NCBI RefSeq assembly: GCF_041886205.1
Contig: NZ_CP169029.1
Strand: one strand, 5' to 3'
Length of the DNA: 64,000 nucleotides
Origin: Escherichia coli
Lineage (GTDB): Bacteria; Pseudomonadota; Gammaproteobacteria; Enterobacterales; Enterobacteriaceae
The notes under the pieces are model-generated. The model did no database searches and had not been told where the DNA came from. It was given only the letters and a program-made list of their open reading frames with translations. Made by a program: the position numbers and the translations under genes. Positions 5,981 through 11,982 of the stretch are shown in pieces. How positions within the stretch are numbered: the stretch's first letter is position 1; every line of letters starts with the position of its first letter.

Positions 5981-7039
5981 GTGCGTGCCGATAAGTCATT
6001 AAGCCCGTTTGAAATCCGGGTATACCGCCATTACCGCATTGTGCATGGTACTCGGGTCGCGCTGGCATTCCTGCTCACTTTTCTCATTATCCGCCTGTTT
6101 ACTATCCCGGAAAGTACCTGGCCGCTGGTCACCATGGTGGTGATTATGGGGCCAATCTCGTTCTGGGGGAACGTTGTCCCTCGCGCATTCGAACGTATTG
6201 GCGGTACGGTGTTGGGGTCGATTTTAGGTCTTATCGCTCTGCAACTGGAGTTAATCTCGTTACCGCTGATGTTAGTCTGGTGCGCGGCGGCTATGTTTCT
6301 TTGCGGTTGGCTGGCGCTGGGCAAGAAACCGTATCAAGGTTTATTGATTGGGGTGACGCTGGCAATTGTTGTTGGTTCCCCGACAGGTGAAATTAATACG
6401 GCGTTATGGCGAAGCGGCGATGTGATCCTCGGCTCTTTACTGGCAATGTTGTTTACCGGTATCTGGCCACAACGGGCGTTCATCCACTGGCGCATTCAAC
6501 TGGCAAAAAGTCTGACCGAGTATAATCGGGTCTATCAATCTGCATTCTCACCGAACTTACTCGAACGCCCGCGTCTGGAAAGCCATCTACAAAAACTCCT
6601 GACCGATGCCGTGAAAATGCGTGGGCTGATTGCGCCCGCCAGCAAAGAAACCCGTATTCCAAAATCGATATATGAAGGTATCCAGACCATTAATCGCAAT
6701 CTGGTTTGTATGCTGGAGTTGCAAATCAATGCATACTGGGCCACGCGCCCCAGCCATTTCGTGTTATTGAACGCGCAAAAACTTCGTGATACCCAGCATA
6801 TGATGCAGCAAATACTGCTGAGCCTTGTTCATGCGCTGTACGAAGGTAATCCGCAGCCGGTTTTTGCCAATACGGAAAAATTGAACGATGCTGTGGAAGA
6901 GCTGCGTCAGTTGCTGAATAACCACCATGACCTGAAGGTTGTGGAAACACCAATCTATGGTTATGTGTGGCTGAACATGGAAACGGCACATCAGCTTGAG
7001 TTGCTATCGAATCTGATTTGCCGGGCCTTGCGCAAATAA
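5981..7039 (+). CDS. yeeA: Inner membrane protein YeeA (FUSC-like)
   Basis: 352-aa ORF with GTG start, hydrophobic N-terminal half; synteny. Confidence 0.85.
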   Translation: MRADKSLSPFEIRVYRHYRIVHGTRVALAFLLTFLIIRLFTIPESTWPLVTMVVIMGPISFWGNVVPRAFERIGGTVLGSILGLIALQLELISLPLMLVWCAAAMFLCGWLALGKKPYQGLLIGVTLAIVVGSPTGEINTALWRSGDVILGSLLAMLFTGIWPQRAFIHWRIQLAKSLTEYNRVYQSAFSPNLLERPRLESHLQKLLTDAVKMRGLIAPASKETRIPKSIYEGIQTINRNLVCMLELQINAYWATRPSHFVLLNAQKLRDTQHMMQQILLSLVHALYEGNPQPVFANTEKLNDAVEELRQLLNNHHDLKVVETPIYGYVWLNMETAHQLELLSNLICRALRK

Positions 7040-7210
7040 TTCCTGAACTTCAGAATCATCTTGCTGCTGCTTCGATTCAGCAAGGATAAAGGGTATGATA
7101 GTGAAAAGGGATAAAAGCATTGTCATCTGCGGCAGCTATGAGTAATGTTGGCCCTAACGAATAGCGGTTGCTTAAACGAATCCGACTCTCACATTATCAG
7201 GGGTATAAAA

Positions 7211-7540
7211 ATGGAAACTACCAAGCCTTCATTCCAGGACGTACTGGAATTTGTTCGTCTGTTCCGTCGTAAGAACAAACTGCAACGTGAAATTCAGGAC
7301 GTTGAGAAAAAGATCCGTGACAACCAGAAGCGCGTCCTGTTGCTGGACAACCTGAGCGATTACATCAAGCCAGGGATGAGCGTTGAAGCAATCCAGGGCA
7401 TCATCGCCAGCATGAAAGGTGACTATGAAGATCGCGTTGACGATTACATCATCAAAAATGCCGAGCTCTCCAAAGAACGCCGCGATATCTCCAAAAAGCT
7501 GAAAGCTATGGGCGAAATGAAAAACGGCGAAGCGAAGTAA
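7211..7540 (+). CDS. yeeX: DUF496 family protein YeeX
   Basis: 109 aa from internal ATG ([14 protein letters not shown]...); highly charged coiled-coil-like protein. Confidence 0.85.
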
Positions 7541-7640
7541 TTCCCGTTTTATTCAATGAGGGTTGCCCGGCAACCCTCATTGCTCATTGATTCTTATCTG
7601 TGTATCACCGTCATCATTCTCATCTGAGAACCAATCGAAA

Positions 7641-7860
7641 TTAACAACAGCCTTCTTCTGTATGCAGCAAGGCAAAAAGTTCTGTAACTCCATTGTTATT
7701 AACTGCACTGGTTACTAACACGTTGTGCGCTCCAGCTTCCCGTAACCAACTTTTCACCAAAGATATTTGTTCCATGCTGGCTAAATCTGCTTTGGTTACT
7801 ACTCCAATGACCGGGTGATTCATGGCCCGGTAGGGCGTTTTTACCTCTAATTCCTGCTTC
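7641..7860 (-). pseudogene. EutP/PduV-like GTPase C-terminal fragment (yoeF-like remnant)
   Basis: C-terminal about 70 aa (...VIGVVTKADLASMEQISLVKSWLREAGAHNVLVTSAVNNNGVTELF...) resembles the EutP/PduV family; no N-terminal domain; upstream part of the track ORF is antisense to the IS66 remnant. Confidence 0.5.
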
Positions 7861-7861
7861 A

Positions 7862-8053
7862 GCGCTGAGATTCCTGCTTGTTGCCGGAAAAGCAGGCACC
7901 TGCCGTCTGAACGGTATCGATCCGGAAGCGTATCTGCGCCATATTCTGAGCATACTGCCGGAATGGCCCTCCAACCGTGTTGACGAACTCCTGCCATGGA
8001 ACGTAGTTCTCACCAATAAATAAGCGTCAATACGGTGCTCCGTTGACGCTTAC
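7862..8053 (+). mobile_element. IS66-family transposase 3' remnant including the terminal repeat (yoeD-like)
   Basis: Translation ...GIDPEAYLRHILSILPEWPSNRVDELLPWNVVLTNK* matches IS66 TnpC C-termini; ends with ...CGTTGACGCTTAC, resembling the IS66 right inverted repeat. Confidence 0.6.
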
Positions 8054-8072
8054 TTTAATCCGTTTTCTGAGC

Positions 8073-8153
8073 TTAGATTTTTCTGTTCCTACCCAGACCG
8101 TGGATTTGGAATTCATTTTTTGTCAGGTCAATGCTAATCGTTAAAACGGCCAT
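8073..8153 (-). pseudogene. Short ORF with IS110-family-like transposase N-terminus, abutting the IS66 remnant
   Basis: GGAGG RBS then MAVLTISIDLTKNEFQIHG..., reminiscent of IS110/IS1111 transposase N-termini; only 26 codons. Recall-based, weak. Confidence 0.3.
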
Positions 8154-8437
8154 AACGCACCTCCACTGGAAGGTTTATCAGTAATATCCTACCGTTGCTT
8201 CATGGTCGGGGCGTCCATTCCATTATTATCGGTTTTCCTTTCTGTTTATAAATGAAAACGCCAGCTGTATTCAGGCTGGCGTCAGGGGAAATGAAGCCTG
8301 TTGAGTGAGATTCACCGGTTCTGGTGCAGAAGCTGCAGATGGCGCAGGGTAAGGACATCTTCTCTTGCCTGCTTAATACAGGACAACAGTGCTGTTTCTG
8401 TGGTTAATGGTACTATACCCTGCATCACTGCATTGTC

Positions 8438-8632
8438 TTACAGCAACTGGTGAGGGCTGGCATAAGTTGCCGGTGTTTCGGTAGAGTCACGGTCATCCAC
8501 CACGCGGAGTGAATAACCTTTTTCAGCGGCCTTATTAATCAGTTCAGTGATATTAACACCATCAATGTCAACGACAATGTGCCCCATATCCAGCGCCTGT
8601 ACGTTAACGCTGTCGGCTTCCAGTGTCATCAT
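8438..8632 (-). CDS. Hypothetical 64-aa protein in the prophage-remnant segment (possibly YeeW/YpjJ-like)
   Basis: ATG with GGAGG 4 nt upstream; acidic protein MMTLEADSVNVQALDMGHIVVDIDGVNITELINKAAEKGYSLRV...; sits where yeeW would be by synteny but I cannot confirm identity. Confidence 0.45.
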   Translation of the reverse strand: MMTLEADSVNVQALDMGHIVVDIDGVNITELINKAAEKGYSLRVVDDRDSTETPATYASPHQLL

Positions 8633-8756
8633 TTCGCCTCCGGATACTTACCCAGGGTAATGTTATTTACCGTTCTGTAATTGTCGCGGGTCATCAGGCC
8701 GGTCGCCCTGCGAGCCCGGAGGATATCGATGCTGTTTATTAACTGAGAGCGGGTAT

Positions 8757-9460
8757 GGGCGCTGCTTCGCAGACAGGCAGAACTTGATGGTATGCCTGCG
8801 ATCAATGCCAAACGTGTTTACCGGATCATGCGCCAGAATGCGCTGTTGCTTGAGCGAAAACCTGCTGTACCGCCATCGAAACGGGCACATACAGGCAGAG
8901 TGGCCGTGAAAGAAAGCAATCAGCGATGGTGCTCTGACGGGTTCGAGTTCTGCTGTGATAACGGAGAGAGACTGCGTGTCACGTTCGCGCTGGACTGCTG
9001 TGATCGTGAGGCACTGCACTGGGCGGTCACTACCGGCGGCTTCAACAGTGAAACAGTACAGGACGTCATGCTGGGAGCGGTGGAACGCCGCTTCGGCAAC
9101 GATCTTCCGTCGTCTCCAGTGGAGTGGCTGACGGATAATGGTTCATGCTACCGGGCTAATGAAACACGCCAGTTCGCCCGGATGTTGGGACTTGAACCGA
9201 AGAACACGGCGGTGCGGAGTCCGGAGAGTAACGGAATAGCAGAGAGCTTCGTGAAAACGATAAAGCGTGACTACATCAGTATCATGCCCAAACCAGACGG
9301 GTTAACGGCAGCAAAGAACCTTGCAGAGGCGTTCGAGCATTATAACGAATGGCATCCGCATAGTGCGCTGGGTTATCGCTCGCCACGGGAATATCTGCGG
9401 CAGCGGGCTTGTAATGGGTTAAGTGATAACAGATGTCTGGAAATATAGGGGCAAATCCAG
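8757..9460 (+). mobile_element. insD: IS2, 5'-truncated (insD C-terminal about 230 codons plus right terminal repeat)
   Basis: ORF 8792-9448 matches IS2 InsD (…[22 protein letters not shown]…SDNRCLEI); in-frame homology begins about 8757 after a stop; IS2 right end TGGATTTGCCCCTATATTTCCAGACATCTGTTATCACTTA present in reverse complement at 9421-9460. Confidence 0.85.
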
Positions 9461-9792
9461 CCACGAATGCGGATTTGTTTACGGCCTGCCAAGGAGTTGT
9501 CTGTTATCTCTACTCCGGGGATGTCCTGCAAATTATCGGCTATGGAGGCATTGGTGGAGTTCTGCAATGTTTGTTGGTCAATAACCTGTATAGTCGCCGG
9601 GCTTTCCCAAAGGTTGCTTGCCGAACGATTCGTGGTCACGACGAGCGTCTCTTCGTTGCTGATTTTTGTTTCTGAAGAAGTTGCGGTTGCAGTAGAAACT
9701 ATCCCAGAAATGCATAATGACAGAGTGGAAAGGATATAAATTCGACAAGGTATATTATATAACATTTCATCCCTCATTAATACAAAGTACAA
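9461..9792 (-). pseudogene. yoeA: TonB-dependent outer-membrane receptor N-terminal (plug) fragment interrupted by IS2 (yoeA-like)
   Basis: Minus-strand translation ...ETLVVTTNRSASNLWESPATIQVIDQQTLQNSTNASIADNLQDIPGVEITDNSLAGRKQIRIRG is a TonB-box/plug region; reading frame runs into the IS2 end. Confidence 0.7.
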
Positions 9793-9822
9793 ATGATTGC
9801 TGTAATGATAATTATTTTCATT
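9793..9822 (-). promoter_or_regulatory. Fur box at the promoter of the disrupted TonB-dependent receptor
   Basis: AATGATTGCTGTAATGATAATTATTTTCATT closely matches the Fur consensus GATAATGATAATCATTATC. Confidence 0.6.
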
Positions 9823-9971
9823 TATGTTCTCATATATCTATAATTATTGTCATCTTCATAAATTGTAAATATCAAACATTTTTGACCTTAATCATGTTTT
9901 TTGATAGATATTTTACGACTGAACATATCCGTCGTTTCCTCTGACTCGTGTCAGTCGGTCTCTGGTTGTAT

Positions 9972-10010
9972 CCACGGACCGCACTCTTGACATAAGAGTG
10001 CGGTCCGTGG
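9972..10010. repeat. Perfect 17-bp inverted repeat with 5-nt loop
   Basis: CCACGGACCGCACTCTT-gacat-AAGAGTGCGGTCCGTGG; no flanking T-run on either strand. Confidence 0.9.
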
Positions 10011-11436
10011 AAAACGGAGTTGAAAAAATGGTGTCTGAAAGAAGGTACCATCATTGTGATGACAAATACTTTGGCGTGGATAATGTAATTAATTGCTGAA
10101 ATTGACCGTATATGCGGTAAGACTCATATCAGTACCAGGTCCGGTTAATTGCTGATACTAATATAAACTTTTTACAAAAGGATGAATGCAGAAGGTTACT
10201 CTAATGGCCAGAGTGATGACAATGATGGTCAGACGTTGACCTGCAGAAACTGCATTTTAATTGGTCTATAAAGTCTGCAAGAGGAATCAGGGTCAGATCA
10301 GTGAGTCTTATCGCGGCCCGAAGCTATGACTGAAAGAAGGCTGGATACAGAATTGCAACAATTTGGCAATGTCAGAACACAGAAGCTTTGCAAGCAGGTG
10401 AAAGGTTATGTCTAGCAAAAGGAGTATATCAGAATATATCTACTGATGTACAAAACACAACAATAGCTTCATGATATATAAATACGTGATGACGAGTGGT
10501 ACTCCGCATGGTTATTTAACTTCTCAGCACCACTAATGATCCTGAGCAACTTCGTATTTGGGCCATTACCATGGAGTAGAAAGCTGTGTCTGAGAATGCA
10601 GAATTTGAGAAAAGAATTCGCTTTCTTGGAGAGCTTCTGAAAATGGCACGCTAACAACGTTTTGTTAAAAAATGTGAATCACTTGCCGGGGCTGCATTTT
10701 CTATTCGAGGAGAATGTTGACGTAGATATTACAGAAATCTCAGCGCATCAGGATAAACTGCTACCTTAGGTCAACCACCAAAAGAAAATACAATACGTCC
10801 AGTTTGTATGCCTTTAATAACACATCTTCTAAATGTTGAAGAATTATCCCGCCTGCTGAAGAACGTTGCTCTGAGTGTGATAAACCTTTTTATTCTTGAT
10901 GATGTCAGCGAGAAGATGGAATATATCCCCGACTGGGTCGTGGTTACCCGGTTAAACATCTGGTGGCGCTAATAAATCTGGCAAGTCACATTCTGTTGAA
11001 TGCTGTGACAGTGCCTTACCGAGAGAGCGAAATTGTGGTGTTCTAGTGCATAGTCGCCACCATTCCGGATAATTCTATTACGTTGTTTTACAAGTTCTTT
11101 TACAGCGCAGATCTGTCGCTGACGTTGAATCAATAGCCTGGATTTCAGAACACAATGCCCGTTTGCTGGTTGTTCCGGCAGTAGCATTAATTCATTATCT
11201 GAATGAAATGTGTCAATCCACAGAAACCGCTGTCAATGACGCATTTTGTCGGACGTTAACACGAGAAAGTCTGGCTATTCCGTAATGCCATCTTATTTCG
11301 TAATGGATTGAGAATGCTGGATTTTTAATTATATTACGCGCAGTATTAATCGCGTAAATGTTTTGCGGTCAGCAACGGTGGGGGATCCATTGTTCTGTTC
11401 AATGAATACCATCATACATTTGAATCAGGAGTCGGT

Positions 11437-11982
11437 ATGATGATTTTGGTGACGGGGGGCGCACGGAGCGGGAAGAGTCGCCACGCAGAGGCGCTTATTG
11501 GGGACTCTTCACAGGTTCTGTATATCGCTACCTCGCAAATCCTTGATGATGAGATGGCTGCACGGATAGAACATCATCGGCAAGGCCGCCCGGAGCACTG
11601 GCGCACAGTGGAGCGCTGGCAACATCTTGATGAATTAATTCATGCAGACATTAACCCGAATGAGGTTGTGTTGCTTGAATGCGTTACCACAATGGTGACT
11701 AATCTGTTGTTTGATTATGGCGGCGATAAAGACCCTGATGAATGGGATTATCAGGCGATGGAACAGGCGATTAATGCTGAGATTCAGTCGTTGATTGCTG
11801 CCTGCCAACGTTGCCCCGCAAAGGTTGTATTAGTGACTAACGAAGTGGGAATGGGGATTGTGCCGGAGAGTCGTCTGGCACGACATTTTCGTGATATTGC
11901 CGGGCGGGTAAATCAGCAGTTGGCCGCTGCGGCAAATGAAGTATGGCTGGTGGTTTCGGGTATTGGAGTAAAAATCAAATGA
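11437..11982 (+). CDS. cobU: Adenosylcobinamide kinase / adenosylcobinamide-phosphate guanylyltransferase
   Basis: 181 aa, P-loop GGARSGKS; first gene of cobUST; contains a Chi sequence GCTGGTGG. Confidence 0.92.

Follow-up and report, generated by a model that had tools for sequence, protein, structure and literature searches.

The 5' end of the Escherichia coli pseudogene yoeA, very probably a decayed copy of the heme receptor gene hma, with a surviving Fur-box promoter

Several overlapping Fur boxes that cover the -10 and -35 elements of a sigma-70 promoter, just upstream of a gene for a TonB-dependent receptor, are found at the fhuA, fepA, cirA, fiu and fecA promoters, and the same arrangement has been described for yoeA of Escherichia coli K-12. 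Shultzaberger et al. reported that the predicted sigma-70 promoter of yoeA, whose -10 element was placed 48 bases upstream of the start, is overlapped by two Fur sites of 27.4 and 9.0 bits (PMC1807945). Chen et al. (2007) identified the yoeA cluster as the strongest predicted Fur cluster in E. coli K-12 (27.4 bits, 12 sites in 95 bp, position -48), unusually dense in comparison with the classical receptor promoters, and it was gel-shifted by Fur (PMC2189734). A Fur ChIP-exo peak in iron-replete K-12 (P66, 2066589-2066610) was attributed to b1995/yoeA by Gao et al. (2023), who state that Seo et al. had found it as well, and a second K-12 peak (P65) was assigned to yoeH (PMC10164565 supplement). 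Beauchene et al. included yoeA among the known Fur-repressed operons with changed transcript levels (PMC4676285), and yoeA is also a member of the Fur-2 iModulon. Unlike the classical receptor genes, yoeA is dead, so that its regulation has no transport output: in the annotation of K-12 MG1655 it is a pseudogene (b4582, formerly b1995/b1998) of the CP4-44 region, listed as a 'gene fragment 1' of 306 bp followed by IS2F.

The second system to which the present locus has to be compared is hma (c2482), the first gene of PAI-cobU in UPEC. It is functional in heme uptake and serves as a vaccine antigen, and in strain CFT073 c2482/hma was induced 14.8-fold in urine and was also induced in vivo (PMC2736566). 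The use of heme has been tied, in general terms only, to 'a surface-exposed Tyr' (PMC3832793). A review places PAI-CFT073-cobU, carrying the 'Hma, Fbp system', at 2322324-2365760 (PMC7545054).

The window analyzed here is a stretch of 64,000 nucleotides of an E. coli chromosome, and the locus of interest lies in it between tmaR/yeeX (7145-7540) and cobU (from 11437), where the surrounding 4.5 kb share at least 99% identity with thousands of E. coli genomes. We interpret the region, with a probability of roughly 0.93, as the 5' end of the pseudogene yoeA, a decayed copy of the heme receptor gene hma that has kept its Fur promoter (Table 1). A preliminary description, made from the sequence itself, had proposed a Fur-box promoter left driving a fragment of a TonB-dependent receptor; it had missed the named pseudogene yoeA, the published Fur site, the UPEC heme receptor gene hma as the intact gene, and yeeW as the open reading frame of 64 aa that it had listed downstream. 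The yoeA promoter and its control by Fur have been described previously and represent an ordinary case of regulatory DNA surviving the decay of a gene; the sole unrecorded detail is a strain-specific IS2-cbtA fusion that has placed yeeW downstream.

Table 1. Coordinates of the features discussed in the text (window numbering; promoter-like sites are consensus matches).
Feature	Position	Strand	Description
yoeA fragment 1	9460..9765	-	first 102 codons of an hma-type TonB-dependent receptor; signal peptide, TonB box ETLVVTT, first half of plug
Continuation of the yoeA frame into the IS2 end	9373..9459	-	28 IS2-derived codons and stop, giving a 130-aa hybrid ORF
IS2 remnant	8750..9459	+	right 710 of 1331 bp; 3' part of insD and right inverted repeat
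cbtA 3' remnant (toxin gene)	8629..8764	-	fused to IS2; cbtA match reaches 8764, IS2 identity from 8750
yeeW (DUF5983), the ORF of 64 aa	8438..8632	-	Pfam DUF5983_N, E = 7.8e-29; annotated yeeW in strains D2 and TOK-001
Cluster of overlapping Fur boxes	9801..9857		consensus scoring; equivalent to the K-12 Fur cluster at -48 of yoeA
Promoter-like site for yoeA	9811..9840	-	-35 TAGATA, 18-nt spacer, -10 AATAAT; consensus scan
Alternative yoeA promoter-like site	9833-9805	-	-35 ATGAGA, 17-nt spacer, -10 TATCAT; consensus scan

The reading frame of yoeA opens with an ATG at 9765-9763 on the minus strand, preceded by a Shine-Dalgarno motif (GAGGG, 9775-9771), and its N-terminus, MLYNIPCRIYILSTLSLCISGIVSTATA, appears signal-peptide-like on inspection of the translation alone and is followed by the TonB box. 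Pfam Plug (PF07715) matches the fragment with E = 1e-7 (32.9 bits against a cut-off of 23.9) over profile positions 4-52 of 107, the plug domain being halved by IS2. The 22-stranded beta-barrel (PF00593) with its C-terminal aromatic residue is missing, as the coding sequence runs into IS2. Because this sequence stops at codon 102 and a barrel is present only in the intact 715-aa orthologue, the window carries a fragment of a receptor gene and not a receptor; functional heme uptake is likewise beyond a fragment in which the barrel is missing, as is most of the plug with residue 126. The stop codon of the hybrid yoeA-IS2 frame is located at 9373, and more than 1000 contigs carry exactly this 130-aa sequence under the name 'Protein YoeA'. 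The proposal that IS2 cuts the receptor is correct, but the length of about 110 codons given for the remaining part is not, since the annotated gene has 102 codons; the higher figure corresponds to a count from an upstream in-frame TTG at 9792 (111 codons).

An intact TonB-dependent receptor of 715 aa (WP_000966628.1; C_RS11765 in CFT073), which is encoded next to cobU in CFT073, UTI89 and ATCC 25922, begins with exactly the 102 residues of yoeA. From the IS2 insertion point up to cobU, the window and the CFT073-type locus share 98.9% DNA identity. Sequence (102/102 aa) and synteny, i.e., the place next to cobU, both establish orthology to the receptor of CFT073. The preliminary description had suggested an alignment to intact receptors and would have abandoned its reading if no similarity appeared; the complete identity, together with the Pfam Plug match, settles the assignment of the fragment to the TonB-dependent receptors. 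The two loci differ in that the UPEC gene encodes a complete plug and beta-barrel and is iron-induced, whereas the window holds only the fragment.

The intact protein is closest to the NCBIfam TonB-hemin subfamily (229 bits against a curated cut-off of 316.85), and it is almost certainly the UPEC heme receptor Hma (c2482), an assignment based on island coordinates and locus-tag offset, not on a deposited Hma sequence. The intact receptor gene spans 2322324-2324471 in CFT073, and its first base, 2322324, is the one at which PAI-CFT073-cobU starts. Further, fyuA is c2436 and corresponds to C_RS11540, and the intact receptor is found 45 tags later, which leads to about c2481-c2482, an offset that is one short for c2482. 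Residue 126 of this receptor is a tyrosine. Hagan and Mobley in 2009 reportedly found Tyr-126 to be needed by Hma for heme use. The only other receptor in the cobU island, C_RS11950, was also considered as Hma and was rejected, given that it would be approximately c2518 and has Arg rather than Tyr at residue 126. The 'hma' PCR primers listed in Table 1 of PMC6202021 matched neither of the TonB-dependent receptors of the CFT073 PAI-cobU, even at two mismatches, and the reverse primer encodes a ...TRYQW C-terminus as opposed to ...GFVWNF in the intact receptor; the primers were therefore judged unreliable as a test of identity, and the island coordinates and tag offsets were used instead. The names in the protein-cluster source were generic ones for TonB-dependent receptors, with no 'Hma' among them, and a literature search for 'yoeA' together with 'hma' returned no paper with both terms. 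A second TonB-dependent receptor (721 aa) of the CFT073 cobU island (L006 33305-35470; CFT073 2355304-2357469) and the FecCD-type ABC transporter adjacent to it presumably represent the 'Fbp system' of reviews and are absent from the window.

Upstream of the yoeA start, the core 7-1-7 Fur box TGATAATTATTTTCA at 9806-9820 (TGAAAATAATTATCA on the coding strand) agrees with the consensus TGATAATNATTATCA at 13 of 14 positions, with one mismatch, and its center precedes the ATG by 48 nt. No other match to this consensus occurs in the 64 kb at up to two mismatches, for which 0.22 matches are expected. When all 19-mers of the window were scored against GATAATGATAATCATTATC, the highest score was obtained at 9801-9819 (15/19); a search with the 19-mer consensus at up to three mismatches gave no match, as the site carries four. 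Further overlapping or adjacent sites are present at 9807-9825 (14/19), 9833-9851 (13/19) and 9839-9857 (14/19), and Fur boxes overlap the hexamers of both candidate minus-strand promoters, which are consensus matches only. The near-consensus Fur box that had been reported directly upstream of the receptor start is thereby confirmed, and it is the best Fur match in the window.

The Fur-box stretch (9801-9857) is identical to that of K-12, the single base difference in the 230 bp upstream of yoeA being located at 9799, outside the boxes, and after coordinate conversion peak P66 corresponds to positions 9814-9835 of the window, inside the cluster. The promoter region as a whole is 97% conserved across the window, K-12 and CFT073. 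In CFT073 the hma Fur box occupies the same position (L005 6255-6269) and is a perfect 7-1-7 palindrome, TGATAATAATTATCA, whereas the yoeA-pseudogene sequences examined (window and K-12) differ from the UPEC box by one T-to-A change in the core. For CFT073, too, a Fur ChIP-exo peak was reported under iron-replete conditions (P85), 58-70 bp upstream of C_RS11765 (Gao et al., 2023; PMC10164565 supplement). The K-12 box with its one substitution still belongs to the strongest-scoring Fur cluster of the K-12 genome and is still bound by Fur. The preliminary description had named a lack of Fur binding or of an iron-responsive transcript as the observation that would speak against it; because the published K-12 data cover the identical Fur-box stretch, this objection fails, with gel shift, ChIP-exo, the list of Fur-repressed operons and the Fur-2 iModulon all at hand for the same sequence.

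Farther upstream, at 9971-10011, there is a perfect inverted repeat of 18 nt with a 5-nt loop (TCCACGGACCGCACTCTT / AAGAGTGCGGTCCGTGGA). It is located about 205 bp upstream of the yoeA ATG, in the interval that separates the pseudogene yoeH from the Fur cluster. The repeat lacks a following T-run on both strands, and an Rfam scan of 7000-11600, which includes it, gave no match. Converted to window coordinates, peak P65 falls at about 9949-9977, beside this repeat.

On its other side, the yoeA fragment abuts an IS2 remnant that is 100% identical to the right 710 bp of K-12 IS2F, and the IS2 right end meets the fragment exactly as in K-12 yoeA (b4582). The junction noticed earlier is thus real, with a correction of one nucleotide, given that IS2 ends at 9459 rather than 9460. 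A complete IS2 (IS3 family, 1331 bp) is not present. Because the left inverted repeat, insC and the 5' part of insD have been deleted, the remnant is unable to move on its own, and in strain D2 it is annotated as an incomplete integrase-core pseudogene. At the junction of IS2 with cbtA (8750-8764), approximately 15 bp are common to both partners, imperfectly, and yeeW, which is encoded on the strand of yoeA, follows downstream at a distance of 828 nt from the yoeA-IS2 junction. The undeleted precursor is seen in strain TOK-001, where the truncated yoeA and yeeW are separated by a full IS2, yoeA fragment 2, yeeT, cbeA and cbtA, and 2268 bp that are present there are missing from the window (the 2.3-kb deletion); strain D2 has a related IS2-cbtA junction from which a further 203 bp are missing.

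Compared to K-12, the window therefore shares the place next to cobU, the 306-bp fragment 1, the insertion point and orientation of IS2 and the identical cluster of Fur boxes. It differs in that K-12 has kept the whole IS2, yoeA fragment 2 and the rest of CP4-44 (yeeP, flu ... cbtA), whereas in the window only 710 bp of IS2 remain and run directly into the 3' end of cbtA. A further element, IS5H, is inserted upstream in K-12, near yoeG. Its insertion point corresponds to about 11043-11046 of the window, between yoeG and yeeH, and the element is absent from the window and from most other strains.

Of 5426 complete E. coli genomes, 2186 have promoter and fragment together. The initial 600 bp of the gene are present in 2110 genomes, with 1552 of them uninterrupted at codon 102 and approximately 558 stopping exactly at this codon, as K-12 does. 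The intact gene is found next to cobU in B2, O157 and other lineages. In roughly 2100 genomes, conservation of the promoter with its Fur boxes is about 99%, both where the gene is intact, as that of the virulence-associated heme receptor hma, and where it is cut. A few genomes are uninterrupted at codon 102 and end near nt 495, which is the point of the K-12 C-terminal deletion, and their existence suggests that the 3' deletion of the gene preceded the insertion of IS2. The order of decay would then have been the loss of the 3' part, the insertion of IS2 after codon 102 and the 2.3-kb IS2-cbtA deletion, by which the left half of IS2 would have been removed.

In the ancestral gene, a sigma-70 promoter would have been overlapped by the cluster of Fur boxes, so that iron-bound Fur would occupy the cluster and block RNA polymerase, and the promoter would fire under iron limitation. 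Given that the promoter, the Fur boxes, the ribosome-binding site and the first 102 codons are untouched, Fur is expected to bind still and iron starvation to give a transcript still. Fur binding in vitro and in vivo, as well as Fur-dependent RNA levels, are known from the literature on the identical K-12 sequence (PMC2189734; PMC10164565; PMC4676285), and we infer that this regulation extends to the strain of the window. The transcript could encode only an exported hybrid of 130 aa with the signal peptide, the TonB box, half of the plug and 28 IS2-derived residues, which cannot act as a receptor because it has no beta-barrel. As to the extent of the transcript, the sequence points to Rho-dependent termination before yeeW as the likely outcome, because about 740 nt of untranslated RNA with C-rich, G-poor stretches would follow the stop codon.

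It is conceivable that the promoter owes its appearance of a Fur target to the composition of horizontally acquired DNA, in which a match without regulatory meaning could arise by chance. The stretch from 9767 to 9900 has a GC content of only 22% and the Fur consensus is itself AT-rich. Of 5000 dinucleotide-preserving shuffles of this local stretch, however, 15 reached the 13/14 core and 59 a score of 15/19, and 14 contained at least four sites with 13/19 or better, so that core and site both exceed what chance would give; moreover, binding of Fur to the identical sequence of K-12 has been observed both in vitro and in vivo. On the basis of the shuffles together with the published gel shift and ChIP-exo data we reject this explanation, which is hardly credible. 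A more specific doubt concerns the direction in which the cluster acts, since it might mainly serve a divergent promoter directed rightward to yoeH and cobU rather than yoeA. The best promoter-like site of the region (10/12; -35 TTTTCA, 18 nt, -10 TATAAT) does lie on the plus strand inside the Fur cluster, at 9815-9844, and the separate peak P65 was assigned to yoeH. Nevertheless, for about 1.6 kb downstream the plus strand offers only pseudogene fragments (yoeH, yoeG and pieces of IS4 and cbi). The main site is attributed to the yoeA/hma promoter in the published model as well as in the ChIP-exo assignment, and in UPEC the intact gene is under iron control. We consider it improbable that the cluster mainly serves this direction, and even then the divergent promoter would supplement the reading as a decayed hma with its own Fur promoter and not replace it. 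A divergent Fur-controlled transcript from 9815-9844 is possible as such.

The orphaned promoter might also have been co-opted, in that transcripts made under iron starvation would pass through the IS2 remnant into the cbtA remnant and yeeW and bring yeeW under iron regulation. The direction of such read-through was described correctly in the earlier account, into the IS2 remnant and toward the ORF of 64 aa. The truncated yoeA, the cbtA remnant and yeeW all lie on the minus strand, and any such transcript would be antisense to the truncated insD and sense for the cbtA remnant and yeeW. No intrinsic-terminator-like site was found on this strand between 9460 and 8438, and the yeeW ORF is intact with a GGAGG upstream. 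Against co-option, the untranslated RNA after the stop at 9373 shows C/G ratios of about 1.9-2.0 at 9475-9372 and 8968-8891, which would favor Rho-dependent termination. IS2 is classically polar in one orientation, which also counts against it. The IS2-cbtA junction of the window was found in none of the 5426 complete E. coli genomes, so that nothing suggests selection for the arrangement. As judged from these sequence features, co-option appears unlikely. It is quite doubtful that yeeW would have come under one of the strongest Fur promoters of E. coli as part of a new iron-starvation transcript, or that the exported 130-aa hybrid with its TonB box would be made under iron limitation and compete with genuine receptors for TonB.

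The interpretation as a decayed hma has a value for annotation: in commensal and laboratory E. coli, the only gene controlled by this strong, experimentally verified Fur site is dead, and the site is not to be taken as a sign of iron uptake. It provides a clean example of regulatory DNA outliving its gene, and the relation between yoeA and hma explains why 'YoeA' is encountered in UPEC proteomics and in lists of the Fur regulon. Enrichment of 'YoeA' in vesicles of UPEC strain 536 has been reported (PMC6598517), and this protein is probably intact Hma that was identified through the K-12 YoeA database entry. As for the strain-specific link to yeeW, it is a minor curiosity.

Several other gene remnants are found at the borders of the region. 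Upstream of cobU there are fragments of an IS4-family transposase and of a 'cobalamin biosynthesis protein'. At the opposite end, directly after tmaR, a C-terminal PduV/EutP fragment (7641-7997, minus strand; Pfam E = 6e-13), which is a CDS of 183 bp in the annotation of other strains, is adjoined by a transposase fragment and a DUF957 fragment, and it looks like a relic of a pdu microcompartment operon beside the cob genes.
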